Below are positions 305-21,041 of a DNA stretch of 64,000 nucleotides, in pieces. Every line of letters starts with the position of its first letter. Within the stretch, counting starts at the first letter, position 1. The notes beneath the pieces are model-generated. The model had not been told where the DNA came from and ran no database searches. It saw nothing but the letters and a program-made list of their open reading frames with translations. This DNA comes from a virus. Where the stretch lies: UHGV virus genome UHGV-1430452. One strand, 5' to 3'. A program made the translations under genes and the position numbers.

Positions 305-3300
305 TTACTTCACTCCTTTCAAATACTTAGATACTGTCGATGTAGAAACTCCCATCTTCTTAGCAATCTGTTCAAGTGTATAGTTAGATGCAGCCATTGC
401 TTTAGCTCTACTAACTTGTGCACTGCTTAGACTGTTGGTTAGTCTAGGAGTTGCTCGTTCTCTAAGGTTATCGATGTCTGTTGTGTTAAGGATTCTCTTA
501 AGCTGATTCTCACTAACAGCACCAGCTTGTATAGCTTCCCATTCTTTGTCACTGATCTCTATGTTACGATCTCTTCTAGAGATAGAGCCAACCTCTTGTC
601 TATACTTATTCAACGCCTGTTGGCTAAGCTTTCTCAACGGTTCTCCTTTAAGCTCTTCACCATGTTCTTCAAGGTAAGCCTTCTTCTTAGCTGCTATCTC
701 GGAATTAGCTTTTCGTTGAGCAGTTCTTTCTTTAATCTTATTGAGATCTGACTTATCGACTCTCTCCATTAAAGACTTAACCTCATCTCTATACGCAGCC
801 TTAGCACTTGCTGTTGTTTCGATCTTTCCTGTGTTAGCCATAGCTAATCTAGCTTTGTTACCAAGAGCTTTCATCTCATTAGCGTAGTCCGCATAGATAA
901 GTTCCATAGGATGTCTAGCTTTAGATACTAATTTATAAGCATCATCAGTCTCAGCCATCTTAGTACTTTGCTGCATACGGGTTTTAGTACGATATGTAAT
1001 ATCACCAGCGGCATTAGTATAGGTTACTTTCCCAGTGACGGGGTCTTTTTTCTCAATAGGGTTATACCTTTCGTAAGCTGCCTTATCTTTGGGATCATAT
1101 TCAATCTTCTTGCCATCAGCTGTTCGCACGGTAATAAGACCGGTCTTCTTATCTCGTTTTCTATCGACATAATATAGATCGTCGGCCTTCTTCCAAAGCT
1201 TGGCTCCATCTGGTTTGGTGGGGTCATAATCTTTACTACCTGGGATGTTTATTTTATATGAGCCTTGTCTTTTCTCAACTGAATATTGTCCCTTTGATCT
1301 TGATAAAATGGTAGAAGCTCCACCTGATCTTTCATTTCCGTCATCGTCAATACGAACCTGATACTTCTTTTTAAGTGCAGCAATATTGTTATCTATCTCA
1401 CTTTGTTTGTAATCAAGATGATGTTTCTCAGCATCAATAACAACCATGCTATGCTTAACTGCTCTTGCCAATTCTTTTTCATCAGCTCCAGCTAAAGTCA
1501 TATCAGTAATAAGATTGGATACAACACCCATCTGAGTTCCAGTGTTTTTCATGATGGGATATGCTTTTCCATTACGATAATAACGAACATTACCATCTGC
1601 ATCCTTCTTAGCAACACCACCATATTCAACCTTAGGATCAAATCCTTCAAGATCTTCAAGAGGTCGCTTATTAAGAATTTTTACCTTTCCACCTGGATCA
1701 TTGGTAGGAATACACATAACAGTATCGCCATCAAAGTCTGCACCTGAAAGCTGATCAGCAATCTTATGATTAATGCCGACTGCATCGATACTTTGTTTGC
1801 CAATTATTTTATCTCCCAGTGGATTCTTATTGTTAACTGTTAAGATAGGAATTTCAAATCGTCCGCCATGAGGATAACGAATAAGAGCGAGCTTAGTTCC
1901 ACTCTCGTAGTTTGGAGCATATACTTCATTGTCTTTTAAAGAGTTTATTGGAATAATAACGTGGTACTTCTGTCCAGGTAACGCTGCTGCTTTTAAATGT
2001 ACAGCCGCTGCATCGCAGCTATCTGCAAATTTCTCAAGCATATGTTTCTTAATAGTAGGATTAGTAATAGACATATACTCATCAAACTCAGCAAACTTAT
2101 CTTTCTTAGCAAGATCTAACTGTTTCTTAGCTAGAGTCTGTGACTGTTTAGCCAGGAACTGAGATGGTAATGCGTCCTGCCAATCATCCCAATCTCCTTC
2201 ATCGGATCTCTTATTAATGAGACCTAATTTCTTCTTACCGGTCTTAGGATCGTCATACCAATACTGTCCACCCTTGTCAGCATCTTTTATAAGAGAGCCA
2301 AATGGATTGTCTGGATCATCTTTCTTAATATTTTTAAGAACCGTACTTGTTTTATCGCCTAAAGCTGGAGTACCTTTTTTCTTATTCGTATTAAATATGA
2401 CATCTACTCCATCAGGCATGTTGTCAGAATATACTGCCATACCTTTAAGATAATGAGTTCCATCTACAAGAATACGAACCTGTGAATATCGTGAATCACC
2501 GAGATCAAGATCTTTACATCCTCTGCGAAGTTCAATGATACCGTCCTTATCAATACCCTTAAATCCATCAGCACCGACATCGTCTGCATATCGAACCATT
2601 AAACGTTTTGAATCAAGACTTGCAGGATATGTAAACTTCTTCTGGAATGTATCTCCTCCGTCTATTGATTCATAATCGTTAATTGTCTTTACTCTATCGT
2701 AGTCGTAGATTTCTTTATGTGCCGTTCCTGGTTTACAAAGAACTTTCTGGATGGTCTGTTGTCCTTTTGTATTTATCTGAGGAATACCACCAGTATACAC
2801 AGGATAACCTTCTGCTTTCTGTAAGTAATCAAGAGCAGTATTCAATCGTTCTTTGGATATGCCAAGAGATTTTTCAACACCAGCTGTTACATCGATCATA
2901 CCTTTTTGATCAACATGCTCTCGCAGAAAATCTACAGTCTCCATTGCCTGATGCATACGGTCTTCAGACTTAGGATTAAGAAGAGACCTTACTGTGGACT
3001 CTGGAATACCCATTTCTCTACCGATGGCAGTTGCTCCAAGTCCATCTTCTTTTAAAGATTTAGCTCTAGCTACCTGTTGTAATCTTTCTTCATAACCAGC
3101 CCAACTAATCTGCCTTCTATATTCTGTAGTTGTTAAGTCCATGGATTTAGCTATCGCATTATCTCCGGTCCAGGTCTTACCATTATCATCAGTGTAAGTA
3201 AAACCGGCTTTCTTAAGCTCTTTAACTCTTGCGAGGAAATCGGAACCATGTTGGTATCTATCTTTTCCACTTCCATAAGGATACCTACCGCTGCGGCGAG

Positions 3301-3475
3301 GCATACCATAATGCATAAGTTCATCTTCATTCGCGCTGTCTAAGCGATCAGACCAACCAAAATAAGAAAGGATCTCGTCAGCAACGGTGAACTCTTCATC
3401 GCTGTGCTCAAGATCCTCTTCTCCAAATATAGATTCTACAAGTTCGTTCAACGGAGGTTTCTCTAAGAACTCCAT
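305..3475 (-). CDS. single-chain two-barrel RNA polymerase homolog (YonO/RdRP-like) with N- and C-terminal HTH modules
   Basis: Beta-like DPBB signature YLKGMAVYSDNMPDGVDVIFNTN. Beta-prime-like signature LIRYPHGG...LSGADFDGDTVMCIP (DFDGD encoded ~1723-1740). HTH-like segments LGATAIGREMGIPESTVRSLLNP and YTLEQIAKKMGVSTSTVSKYLKG. Confidence 0.65.
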   Translation of the reverse strand: MEFLEKPPLNELVESIFGEEDLEHSDEEFTVADEILSYFGWSDRLDSANEDELMHYGMPRRSGRYPYGSGKDRYQHGSDFLARVKELKKAGFTYTDDNGKTWTGDNAIAKSMDLTTTEYRRQISWAGYEERLQQVARAKSLKEDGLGATAIGREMGIPESTVRSLLNPKSEDRMHQAMETVDFLREHVDQKGMIDVTAGVEKSLGISKERLNTALDYLQKAEGYPVYTGGIPQINTKGQQTIQKVLCKPGTAHKEIYDYDRVKTINDYESIDGGDTFQKKFTYPASLDSKRLMVRYADDVGADGFKGIDKDGIIELRRGCKDLDLGDSRYSQVRILVDGTHYLKGMAVYSDNMPDGVDVIFNTNKKKGTPALGDKTSTVLKNIKKDDPDNPFGSLIKDADKGGQYWYDDPKTGKKKLGLINKRSDEGDWDDWQDALPSQFLAKQSQTLAKKQLDLAKKDKFAEFDEYMSITNPTIKKHMLEKFADSCDAAAVHLKAAALPGQKYHVIIPINSLKDNEVYAPNYESGTKLALIRYPHGGRFEIPILTVNNKNPLGDKIIGKQSIDAVGINHKIADQLSGADFDGDTVMCIPTNDPGGKVKILNKRPLEDLEGFDPKVEYGGVAKKDADGNVRYYRNGKAYPIMKNTGTQMGVVSNLITDMTLAGADEKELARAVKHSMVVIDAEKHHLDYKQSEIDNNIAALKKKYQVRIDDDGNERSGGASTILSRSKGQYSVEKRQGSYKINIPGSKDYDPTKPDGAKLWKKADDLYYVDRKRDKKTGLITVRTADGKKIEYDPKDKAAYERYNPIEKKDPVTGKVTYTNAAGDITYRTKTRMQQSTKMAETDDAYKLVSKARHPMELIYADYANEMKALGNKARLAMANTGKIETTASAKAAYRDEVKSLMERVDKSDLNKIKERTAQRKANSEIAAKKKAYLEEHGEELKGEPLRKLSQQALNKYRQEVGSISRRDRNIEISDKEWEAIQAGAVSENQLKRILNTTDIDNLRERATPRLTNSLSSAQVSRAKAMAASNYTLEQIAKKMGVSTSTVSKYLKGVK

Positions 3476-4119: not shown

Positions 4120-4410
4120 TTATTTGTTAAATGTTTTTCTGAGATCGTCCAGGACTTGGTCCTTGTTCTCAGGAAATATAAATGCTGAGTGTGACATCTC
4201 ATTCATTTTATCTACATAGTAATCCTGATTTGGCTGATGTTTTGCCGTAGCGCTCTTCTTCACTTCTAATGCGCACCATTTATCTTTGTAGAGAACTAAT
4301 AAGTCCGGAACTCCCTGTAAATATGTTGGATCATTTTTCAGGACCATACATCCTGGGAATTCTTTCTTAAGCTCTTTGATAAGTTTTGCTTGAAATTTGT
4401 TCTCTAACAT
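4120..4410 (-). CDS. VRR-NUC domain nuclease
   Basis: GVPDLLVLYKDKWCALEVKK is the PD...ExK motif typical of small VRR-NUC proteins. The 96-aa size fits. Confidence 0.7.
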   Translation of the reverse strand: MLENKFQAKLIKELKKEFPGCMVLKNDPTYLQGVPDLLVLYKDKWCALEVKKSATAKHQPNQDYYVDKMNEMSHSAFIFPENKDQVLDDLRKTFNK

Positions 4411-4437
4411 ATGTATTGCCTCCTCACGTAAATCACA

Positions 4438-4511
4438 TGGACCCTCTGGGATTCGAACCCAGGACCGTCCGGTTATGAGCCGGATGCTCTAACCAACTGA
4501 ACTAAAGGTCC
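4438..4511 (-). tRNA. tRNA with CAU anticodon (Met or lysidine-modified Ile2)
   Basis: Reverse complement GGACCTTTAGTTCAGTTGGTTAGAGCATCCGGCTCATAACCGGACGGTCCTGGGTTCGAATCCCAGAGGGTCCA folds as a canonical cloverleaf. 7-bp acceptor, GTTCGAATC T-loop, anticodon loop CTCATAA. Confidence 0.88.
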
Positions 4512-7088: not shown

Positions 7089-7529
7089 TTAATCCATGTT
7101 CACTAATTCGTGAATTGAACATTTCAATGCTCTCGCCATTTTTATCAGATTACGAGAATTCGGAGTGGCTAGACCGTTTGTGTATTTACTTATCGTAACC
7201 TGAGTGACACCTATCTTTTCAGCTAATCGATCTTGTGTCATAGCTACGTTTCTCATTTTCCGATTTAGATTACGAGCAAATATCTTTCTCCATTCTTCTT
7301 CTGAAATGTCAATTGAATCTTCGTTGCCTGGATCATGAATCAGATAGGCTTGTCTATTAAGAAAATCATAAGCATACTTTTTACCGCCTTTGATCTTTAC
7401 CGTGATCTCTAATTGTGCACTAGGATACCAATCTAACATTTCTTCCGCTAGATTAGGATAATCCTGACAAAATGCTTCATATACGGGTTTCCAATATTTT
7501 TTACCGTCATTCATCTTAAGTCCCTCCAT
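7089..7529 (-). CDS. XRE-family HTH DNA-binding protein
   Basis: C-terminal MTQDRLAEKIGVTQVTISKYTNGLATPNSRNLIKMARALKCSIHELV. It sits directly beside the iteron array. Confidence 0.75.
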   Translation of the reverse strand: MEGLKMNDGKKYWKPVYEAFCQDYPNLAEEMLDWYPSAQLEITVKIKGGKKYAYDFLNRQAYLIHDPGNEDSIDISEEEWRKIFARNLNRKMRNVAMTQDRLAEKIGVTQVTISKYTNGLATPNSRNLIKMARALKCSIHELVNMD

Positions 7530-7542
7530 TTCTTAAAGATTG

Positions 7543-7969
7543 AATTATGTGCAGACCGAAATTCGTGAAAAATAAAAAAAATACATTTTTAAATTAATAT
7601 ACAACTACTTTATACTTTGGTTATATAACTAAAGTATAAAGTTACCTTACAACAATATATAAAGAAAAAATTATTTTTTACGAATTATGTGCAGACCGAA
7701 ATTCATTTTTACCGTTTTTAGGGCCAAAATGACCGAAAATAGCCAATTTAGCCCCATTTTTGACGAAAAGTGCCGAATTATTAGCAGACCAAAAATAATT
7801 ATTAGCAGACCAAAATTCTATTTTACCATCATTTTCTTATTTATTAGCAGACCAAAAATACCATTTTCCTATTTATTAGCAGACCGAAATTCGGAATTAT
7901 TAGCAGACCAAAAATAGCAAAAACTGAATTATTAGCAGACCAAAAATAATTATTAGCAGACCAAAATTC
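7543..7969. repeat. iteron array: 9 copies of ~21-bp unit (A/T)ATTATTAGCAGACC(A/G)AAA(A/T)T
   Basis: Copies at 7543, 7683 (TGTGCAGACCGAAATTC variant), 7776, 7798, 7839, 7871, 7894, 7926 and 7948. All are direct, and the region is non-coding and AT-rich. Confidence 0.85.
7607..7642. promoter_or_regulatory. 36-bp near-perfect palindrome inside the iteron region
   Basis: ACTTTATACTTTGGTTATATAACTAAAGTATAAAGT with one mismatched pair. It is flanked by A/T runs between iteron copies 1 and 2. Confidence 0.8.
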
Positions 7970-18171: not shown

Positions 18172-18254
18172 AAATTTGTTCTCCTTTTTACTGTATTTTC
18201 TATAAAGGAGTTTGTTTTATCCGCGAATATAACGCGAGCCGTGGAGAATGTTTC

Positions 18255-20594: not shown

Positions 20595-20762
20595 CTACCT
20601 CCTATTTTTCATCATCCGTTCGAAGTCGTTAATAACTTCTTGCTGATGATTGATGATTCCGATCAACTCATTTACTTTTTGAACCAGAATCTTATCGGTA
20701 TGTCCGTATTCGTCTGATACATACCAAGGTTTATTAAGTCTGTTGATTTTCTTTTTAGGCAT
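20595..20762 (-). CDS. hypothetical small protein, 55 aa
   Basis: Hand-translated MPKKKINRLNKPWYVSDEYGHTDKILVQKVNELIGIINHQQEVINDFERMMKNRR. GGAGGG RBS. Confidence 0.5.
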   Translation of the reverse strand: MPKKKINRLNKPWYVSDEYGHTDKILVQKVNELIGIINHQQEVINDFERMMKNRR

Positions 20763-20805
20763 AATATCAACCCTCCTTTTTAAATCAGTCTCAGTTCCTT
20801 CAAAC

Positions 20806-20845
20806 AGAAAACAAAAAGAGTCCTAATCATTTCTGATTAAGACCC
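20806..20845 (-). terminator. intrinsic terminator (promoter-proximal)
   Basis: Minus strand GGGTCTTAATCAGAAATGATTAGGACTC hairpin followed by TTTTTGTTTTCT. It lies between promoter motif 20981-21009 and the next ATG at 20762. Confidence 0.75.
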
Positions 20846-20980
20846 TTTCCAAGAATAAGAATAGAGTTGCGCAAATCTAATGCCTTCGCGAGGGGGCGGC
20901 TTTTACACCGAGGACAGTCGCAACATTAGATATCTCTATCCTAAGCATAACTAATCCCTATCCATTTAATTATGCAGTTT
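20846..20980 (-). ncRNA. candidate structured leader / small RNA (~135 nt, locally GC-rich)
   Basis: It has its own promoter motif and terminator and no RBS-led ORF. Complementary segments ATCTAATG/CATTAGAT, GTTGCG/CGCAAC and CCTTCG/CGAGG. Confidence 0.45.
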
Positions 20981-21009
20981 CTCATAATAGGAATTGTATT
21001 TATCGCGAA
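20981..21009 (-). promoter_or_regulatory. phage promoter-like motif copy
   Basis: Plus strand ctcataataggaattgtatttatcgcgaa, preceded by terminator 21011-21036. Confidence 0.55.
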
Positions 21010-21041
21010 TAAAGAAAAGCCCCGGATAGAGGGCTTATCTA

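Follow-up and report, generated by a model that had tools for sequence, protein, structure and literature searches.

Does the folded, GC-rich RNA encoded at positions 20,806 to 21,009 of UHGV virus genome UHGV-1430452, flanked by a promoter and a terminator and placed before an operon, decide whether that terminator forms, or is it an RNA gene in its own right? The window, that is, the whole 64,000-nucleotide (nt) stretch analysed here, comes from a human-gut siphophage of an uncultured lineage related to Faecalibacterium phage FP_oengus. The original prediction, made from the sequence of the window alone, had described a promoter, a structured RNA and an intrinsic terminator, and had left the function between an attenuator, a riboregulator and a stand-alone small RNA (sRNA), with mutually exclusive pairings ahead of the terminator taken as a sign of attenuation or antitermination, riboswitch-like or put-like. 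That interpretation is partly supported: the stand-alone sRNA fits the comparative data, while attenuation through alternative pairing does not. On balance, and with somewhat better than even confidence, the region is read here as an optional, self-contained, moron-like small-RNA gene made up of promoter, RNA and terminator, with a terminated transcript that probably acts in trans.

The anatomy of promoter, structured non-coding RNA and terminator was borne out on the minus strand (Table 1). The segment is GC-rich as described, its 60-nt peak of 56.7% G+C (36.6% overall) being reached by 0.17% of all 60-nt windows, in eight regions of which one is a tRNA. The RNA body of about 125 nt is non-coding and holds no convincing open reading frame (ORF); the claim that no ORF led by a ribosome-binding site (RBS) is present stands in that sense, yet a 23-codon frame behind a weak AGGGA does exist. 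Centroid and minimum free energy (MFE) structures of the element concur on a hairpin with a G-rich loop followed by a second domain, a long bipartite helix around a GC-rich core, and inverted repeats and unpaired probabilities fit the latter. The fold energy is only modestly unusual, with z = -2.2 for the core and -3.3 for the core plus terminator. The 3′ strand of the P3 helix within the core (20886-20891) reads TCGCGA in the DNA, a hexamer with 18 copies in the window, 15 of them in promoter boxes, this one being among the remaining three.

Table 1. Positions of the RNA element, its promoter and terminator, and associated features in the window
Feature	Position	Strand	Description
Promoter box	20984..21009	minus	TTCGCGATAAATACAATTCCTATTAT; 26-bp phage box, directly 5′ of the RNA element
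Box sites, examples	34 from 55008 to 4551, e.g. 51254-51229, 50675-50650, 48062-48037, 10099-10074	minus	consensus TTCGCGAAAAATACAnnnCCTATTAT, then GAGA
Predicted primary transcript	20806..20983	minus	small RNA plus terminator, about 175 nt; predicted from box, terminator and fold
Hairpin 1	20945..20975	minus	10-bp AU-rich stem GCAUAAUUAA/UUAGUUAUGC; invariant G-rich loop AUGGAUAGGGA (20965-20955)
Domain 2	20858..20942	minus	long bipartite helix around GC-rich core
Domain 2, outer helix	20942-20934 / 20866-20858	minus	
Domain 2, inner helix	20931-20923 / 20883-20875	minus	
P3 helix	20922-20918 / 20891-20887	minus	UGCGA/UCGCG
Unpaired strands flanking P4	20917-20911; 20896-20892	minus	CUGUCCU; CCCCC
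P4 hairpin	20910-20897	minus	CGGU-GUAAAA-GCCG; small, GNRA-like
Internal loop	20874-20867	minus	UUGCGCAA
23-codon ORF, judged non-gene	20877..20948	minus	MLRIEISNVATVLGVKAAPSRRH; ATG 20948, TAG 20877; weak AGGGA 6 nt 5′ of ATG
Intrinsic terminator	20812..20851	minus	core GGGUCUUAAUCA-GAAA-UGAUUAGGACUC, lengthened by A-tract/U-tract pairing; U-rich tail to about 20806
RBS and 55-amino-acid (aa) first gene of downstream train	20595..20778	minus	RBS AAGGAGGG 20778-20771; ATG 20762
Intrinsic terminator of upstream 118-aa gene (21398-21042)	21017..21036	minus	7 pairs, loop 6, T-run; just ahead of box
Single-chain two-barrel RNA polymerase-like protein	305-3475	minus	1056 aa; phrog_4291 match at E = 0

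The strain of the window is found on 13 metagenome contigs that are identical at 127/127 core positions, and none of these has a called gene within the gap. The same type of RNA, termed W-type, recurs in L001, L225-L234 and L242 with a core 98-99% identical, in phages with a helicase about 65% and a 55-aa gene about 78% identical. Of the seven positions that vary among W-type copies, four belong to stems, two to the internal loop UUGCGCAA and one to the 3′ tail; the hairpin-1 loop and the GC-rich core are free of variants. Three of the four stem variants keep or improve the pair. U10C turns a U.G pair of hairpin 1 into C-G, A27G gives U.G in the same hairpin, and U57C (L233) turns U.G into C-G in P3; U25C opens the loop-closing pair of hairpin 1.

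The cassette is carried by some relatives and lacking in others. One type of terminator stands behind the RNA in the window and in L242, and an unrelated one stands behind the same RNA in L001 and L225-L234. L003, L206 and L207 proceed from box to terminator hairpin to gene with the RNA absent, and in L230, which has neither box nor RNA, the terminator of the upstream gene runs straight into the gene. Homologues of the 55-aa gene (P0001-P0035) occur both with and without the element upstream. A second arrangement is seen in L068 and L120, where a box is followed by a B-type RNA, a U-run, a second box and the gene, while the sister contigs L069, L073 and L080 have box and gene directly joined. 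The unit thus possesses what characterizes a moron, namely its own promoter and terminator and a presence that varies at the same site among related phages; for the B-type, box, closing stem and U-run play these parts.

The B-type (L068/L083, L120) is the sole other match of a covariance model built on W-type sequences only, at 19.8 bits and E = 0.028 (162 kb, filters off); covariance model R1 with default filters misses it. It has the same promoter, lies at the same distance behind it and is likewise downstream of a helicase. Three blocks are shared in the same order: the loop GGNUAGGGA, UGCGA...UCGCGA, and a GNRA-type hairpin with CCCCCUC. Hairpin 1 of the B-type has a 9-bp stem of other sequence and the loop ..GGGUAGGGA.., and both this hairpin and the long helix stay paired between the types despite the change in sequence. 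Alignment of W and B by MAFFT/RNAalifold misaligned helices, and a model-fitted alignment was used in its place. In the latter, 11 pairs are changed on both sides and 99.5% of cells are paired, figures that are biased towards the model to which the alignment was fitted. The covariation analysis in related phages that had been proposed as a check therefore amounts to this one W-B comparison. The B-type folds as a clean three-way junction whose closing stem GAGAAGAU/AUCUUCU enters the U-run, with the second box immediately after. Its core contains TCGCGA at 7345-7350 of L068, the sole copy in that 13-kb locus. In both types the G-rich loop could pair with the C-run, at -6.7 kcal/mol in the W-type and -9.8 kcal/mol in the B-type.

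Further relatives were sought widely. No third type was found with model R2 (W+B) over 2.1 Mb of related loci, and blastn with both types gave no match in GenBank phages. A promoter + TAGGGA + CCCCCTC pattern returned only the two known types and chance matches from IMG/VR, JGI metagenomes (as one metagenome scan) and GTDB genomes. The pattern GCCGCCCCCTCGCGAAGGC gave 1 match; a TAGGGA..CCGYCCCCCTC pattern, which is unable to match the W-type, gave 37, all by chance except the known B-type (L083); and promoter + GGNTAGGGA gave chance matches only. A hairpin-loop motif scan of all loci recovered the known copies alone, no relatives of the upstream 118-aa protein were present in IMG/VR, and GTDB genomes held no prophage copy of the element. 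An Rfam 15 scan of the whole window at gathering scores reported only two tRNAs, and at E <= 10 the 401-nt region gave two chance-level eukaryotic matches, with no riboswitch or leader family among them. The RNA is a new, rare family of a general kind that is already known.

Several features of these loci bear on how cassettes might be exchanged. HNH/NUMOD homing-endonuclease genes lie at, or are fused to, the helicase 3′ end in L225, L226, L229, L233, L211 and L238, and these insertions are upstream of the element or of a DUF6353 gene. Repeated terminator sequences mark mosaic junctions (e.g. L230 vs L225). Homing endonucleases and repeated terminators may together explain the exchange.

The terminator is as strong as had been claimed, with 18 pairs and a GAAA loop followed by UUUUUGUUUU, at -19.7 kcal/mol, and it is independent of the RNA domain. 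The RBS and ATG behind it open a train of six small genes that have no promoter box of their own. The absence of another promoter ahead of this train was likewise confirmed: neither a 26-bp box nor a sigma-70-like site lies between 20806 and 20762, and the next boxes downstream, at 18227 and 17446, are weak. In an attenuator or riboswitch expression platform, terminator and antiterminator helices would overlap and so exclude each other; no such antiterminator was found. When transcripts truncated before the 3′ arm were folded (window and L001), no pairing was predicted between the terminator 5′ arm and the conserved element; the gain on folding was -0.5 kcal/mol in the window and -5.7 kcal/mol in L001, the latter from local pairing outside the conserved element. 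On the reading preferred here, this is an ordinary leader terminator, also present in relatives that lack the RNA, and not governed by alternative RNA folds.

The pairings on which the attenuation proposal was built fared unequally. The block ATCTAATG/CATTAGAT is present (20875-20882 / 20924-20931, 8/8) and belongs to the MFE fold. GTTGCG/CGCAAC is also present (20866-20871 / 20919-20924, 6/6), yet a 6-mer match of this kind is at chance level, and variants do not preserve it: U57C creates a C-A mismatch in L233, and the B-type has no counterpart. Drawn in the order A-B...A′-B′ with zero and three linker bases, this second pairing could not form a pseudoknot alongside A:A′. The inner CCTTCG/CGAGG helix requires a bulge and competes with the better-supported CGGU/GCCG hairpin and UGCGA/UCGCG helix. 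With no antiterminator pairing, terminators swapped behind the same RNA, and relatives that keep the terminator when the RNA is absent, control by mutually exclusive pairings finds no support.

How such a cassette might work can be outlined. Transcription would begin at the 26-bp box, probably read by the single-chain two-barrel RNA polymerase of the phage. The RNA would fold on itself into the hairpin with its G-rich loop GGAUAGGGA and the long two-part helix, the latter enclosing a GC-rich core in which a UGCGA/UCGCGA helix carries a GNRA-like hairpin between unpaired UCCU and CCCCC. Most transcripts would stop at the strong intrinsic terminator to yield an RNA of about 175 nt, and the fraction that reads through would feed the six promoterless genes. 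Action in trans could proceed via the G-rich loop and the C-rich strands, which are invariant and predicted to be single-stranded: the RNA could pair with other RNAs through its anti-Shine-Dalgarno-like CCUC motifs, among them Shine-Dalgarno-like sequences, or bind a protein. In W-type contexts, the cassette would have inserted behind a promoter and in front of a leader terminator that was already there. Since L003, L206, L207 and L230 manage without the RNA, neither the leader terminator nor expression of the downstream genes appears to depend on it.

Several points weigh against this proposal. The RNA, its ends and its abundance are predictions. The conserved core has no antisense target in the window, which offers neither a target nor a partner for a trans-acting RNA. 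W-type contexts lack a box between the terminator and the next six genes, so the unit is also an operon leader and a role in cis is possible. Only two deeply different types are available, so that covariation depends on a single comparison, and homology between W and B is supported only by an E of about 0.03 and by positional arguments. Near-identity among mosaic phages could stem from recent cassette exchange and not from purifying selection; some neighbouring segments likewise reach 95-97% identity.

Such a role in cis is the substance of the main rival, a processive antiterminator RNA of the put (HK022) or EAR (Bacillus) type, whose nascent transcript stays with its polymerase and permits read-through of the next and later terminators of any sequence. 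The predicted transcription start is no more than about 10 nt from the element, a strong terminator always follows, the train has no promoter in front of it, and the architecture is two-domain; two unrelated terminators behind the same RNA are what a terminator-independent device would display. Promoter-proximal terminators are moreover common in this genome (37280, 5923, 50220), and some antitermination or leakiness must exist. This explanation is nevertheless judged unlikely, as the same genes stand behind the same leader terminators without the element in L003, L206, L207 and L230, and the B-type, which ends in a stem and U-run of its own, has a second promoter immediately behind it. No Rfam antiterminator family matches, and tRNAs and unrelated RNAs fill the same kind of slot. 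Far less probable still is a riboswitch-like or attenuator leader, in which a signal would decide terminator formation through A:A′ versus B:B′, or through competition of GGAUAGGG and GGAUAGAG for CUCUAUUC. Both alternative pairings do exist, the GC-rich core with its conserved unpaired nucleotides looks aptamer-like, and a terminator follows without another promoter. However, RNA and terminator 5′ arm are not complementary, phages that share the RNA differ in their terminator, L233 disrupts B:B′, the B-type has neither B:B′ nor a separate expression platform, and Rfam yields no match.

The functional unit might also be DNA: a cassette boundary, a site for a protein (the helix-turn-helix (HTH) domain of the polymerase, or a regulator) or a recombination module, recognized through TCGCGA or the TTGCGCAA palindrome. 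The distribution of TCGCGA, largely in promoter boxes (15/18) with one more copy in the element core and the sole L068 copy in the B-type core, suits this idea, as does the location of the region in a mosaic-exchange hot spot between repeated terminators and promoters. Against it, both types conserve the 5′ partner UGCGA, and U57C strengthens the pairing, which would be expected of an RNA helix but not of a DNA site; pairing in hairpin 1 and the long helix persists although their sequence differs between types; and promoter and terminator bracket the element. A DNA function is accordingly given a slim chance. Translation of the 23-codon ORF, as a micro-protein, a toxin or a leader peptide coupling translation to termination, is very improbable, for all that AGGGA lies 6 nt ahead of its ATG and that only one of the seven variant substitutions, GTT>GTC in L233, falls inside it and is synonymous. 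The RNA core explains the low substitution rate equally well. The start codon and the Shine-Dalgarno-like bases are locked in the 10-bp stem of hairpin 1, the B-type has no equivalent ORF or similar peptide, gene callers leave the frame uncalled on every contig, and there is no terminator-competing structure for a ribosome to free.

Two known RNA folds were considered and rejected. An HDV-like nested pseudoknot would have zero or three linker nucleotides here and lacks a J4/2 with a catalytic C, and no Rfam ribozyme matches. Y RNAs of the YrlA kind are recognized by GNCGAA(N)G near the 5′ end, a tRNA-like domain and a position within about 4 kb of a Ro60 (TROVE) gene (PMC4201824). The element holds UGCGA and UCGCGAAGG and no GNCGAA hexamer, and neither ARAGORN nor Rfam reports a tRNA-like domain at the element. 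The only candidate for a Ro partner, a DUF2828/DUF7788 protein (25967-27535), is 5 kb away and has no sequence match to Ro60 in the PDB; its relatives are on other phage contigs, and close ones were not found on other carriers of the element.

The preferred small-RNA cassette is embedded in a regular promoter grammar. A weight matrix built from copies of the 26-bp box matches the minus strand of the window 34 times at >=12 bits and the plus strand 0 times, and the copy of the element, at 41.9 bits, is among the five best. The box does not belong to the sigma-70 class, defined by TTGACA-like and TATAAT-like hexamers 16-18 bp apart: a consensus scan makes no call at 21009-20984, and the spacer from TTCGCG to TATTAT is 14 nt. 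Its length, repetition, strand specificity and usual distance ahead of genes are those of a phage-specific promoter class, and the phage's own polymerase is its probable reader. The likely start of transcription is the G just behind TATTAT (about 20983): the bases that follow TATTAT (GAGAGAAGA) are complementary to the 3′ end (UCUUCUCU-UUUU) in several cassettes unrelated to one another. Leader length is bimodal, with 17-49 nt to the RBS-ATG behind 23 of the 34 boxes and 90-399 nt behind the other 11. The short-leader boxes that were inspected adjoin the preceding terminator directly; the long leaders house two tRNAs, a tRNA-like RNA and further folded RNAs, or just a hairpin and U-run. Related contigs have the box too, there ahead of tRNAs and other RNAs. 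A strong hairpin and U-run within 10-15 nt of the box, with the gene only afterwards, is seen at 37279-37230, 5922-5880 and 50219-50130 (minus strand) and in relatives (L003 ~7520-7570, L206 ~2420-2470). Such promoter-proximal terminators suggest general leakiness, or else an antitermination system, in the phage lineage.

The polymerase is labelled 'RNA-dependent RNA polymerase' in phrog_4291, and bears the GADFDGD metal-binding motif of two-barrel RNA polymerases together with a C-terminal HTH / sigma-70 region 4-like domain. Relatives occur in FP_oengus, lactococcal phages and about 200 actinophages, mostly annotated 'HTH DNA-binding protein', and the phage lineage is also related to the actinophages and lactococcal phages with the same polymerase. 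The protein is a distant YonO relative; SPbeta is absent among its 250 tblastn matches. A large serine recombinase (phrog_95) at 56726-58312, among the very few long ORFs on the plus strand of the window, suggests a temperate lifestyle.

Other RNAs stand behind the same box. At 52574-52440 (minus strand), the box precedes an RNA with a tRNA-like 3′ half (GUCGUGGGUUCGAAUCCCGCGCUAUUCC, acceptor-like GGAAUAG/CUAUUCC), closed by a purine/pyrimidine stem and U-run and uncalled by ARAGORN and Rfam. At 10073-9905 (minus strand), it precedes two tandem units of ~75 nt (GUGGGACUGGAACUGACCAG...GAGAAACGUGUAGC), also found in L068 (7860-8030) and L120 (~4330-4500), whose 5′ and 3′ ends pair (GAGAGAAGAAUA / UAUACUUCUUCUCU); further tandem-unit RNAs occur at L071 12409 and L001 10747. 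A box-driven folded RNA of about 150 nt (GAGAGAAAGCAAUGGAUAGAUACUGGUGGAAAUCCAGU...CAUUGUAUUCUCUUUUU) at 50649-50500 (minus strand) has no Rfam match at E <= 1, and Rfam over the 47-53 kb region reports one tRNA only. The tRNA genes at 47958-48031 and 4438-4511 (both minus strand) each lie inside a promoter-box leader. ARAGORN gives the former a 2-base 'anticodon (ta)', reflecting a 6-nt anticodon loop (CUUAUA), while Rfam scores it as a normal tRNA at 62 bits. The 216-nt leader of the DUF2828/DUF7788 'RNA-binding protein' gene (27760-27545, minus strand) contains three hairpins, each with UAACAGCAA (z = -5.2), and the first of them has the usual box-to-U-run cassette layout; this leader may act as an RNA that binds a protein in connection with the gene. 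A more ambitious proposal, possible though doubtful, is that the element founds a new class of structured phage RNA within a battery of at least seven RNA cassettes (tRNAs, a tRNA-like RNA, tandem-repeat RNAs and the element), all read from the 26-bp promoter by the phage polymerase. Its UGCGA/UCGCGA helix, G-rich loop and C-run would then serve a specific job, whether modulating the phage polymerase in cis, by antitermination, or countering a host system as its decoy or guide.

To our knowledge, phage-encoded small RNAs are still few, and nearly all come from model coliphages and prophages. The RNA described here, structured, strongly conserved and unannotated, behaves like a mobile cassette, and the genome around it combines a very regular promoter/terminator grammar with an RNA polymerase of its own. 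The locus also illustrates that a folded RNA and a terminator ahead of an operon are insufficient to call attenuation, as relatives without the RNA reveal the two to be separable. The surrounding grammar and its battery of RNA cassettes deserve no less interest than the element itself, and the grammar provides a handle for annotating transcription units and RNA genes in this lineage and for probing a YonO-like polymerase at hairpin terminators.

Comparison with known systems places the element among several familiar arrangements. The put RNAs of HK022 and the EAR of the Bacillus eps operon are processive antitermination RNAs, and put acts on the host polymerase. The element resembles them in having two stem-loop domains just 3′ of a promoter and 5′ of terminators, and its action would likewise be independent of terminator sequence. 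It differs in lacking any sequence relation, in being dispensable in relatives with the same leader terminators, in the fresh promoter that follows the B-type and, as regards put, in a polymerase that is probably a phage single-chain enzyme. The C-rich sRNAs of Firmicutes (RsaE/RoxS type) pair with Shine-Dalgarno regions through C-rich motifs. Unpaired UCCU and CCCCCUC flank a small hairpin here as well, and an intrinsic terminator lies at the end; unlike in that group, there is no homology, no target was found in the window, and the C-run could instead pair with the element's own G-rich loop.

Closer parallels in arrangement come from phages. In prophage SPbeta, a non-coding RNA lies just downstream of the YonO promoter (PMC5467207), a loose parallel from a phage with a single-chain two-barrel polymerase in which only the arrangement is compared; the polymerase here is a distant relative with an extra C-terminal HTH. 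In Stx phage, the terminated by-product of the late promoter in PR′-StxS-tR′ is a trans-acting small RNA (PMC7547250). StxS and the lambda '6S' RNA share with the present locus a constitutive phage promoter, a short RNA, a strong terminator and a promoterless gene train (PMC7547250). Here, in contrast, a non-sigma-70 box of 26 bp present 34 times takes the place of one late promoter, neither a Q-type antiterminator nor a qut site was identified, the RNA is optional among relatives, and there is no sequence or structural similarity. Phage morons (PMC3594210) carry protein genes, whereas the cargo here is a structured RNA and the W-type unit is also the sole promoter for the next genes; like them, the cassette is an independent unit with its own promoter and terminator, set between genes, present or absent, and horizontally exchanged.

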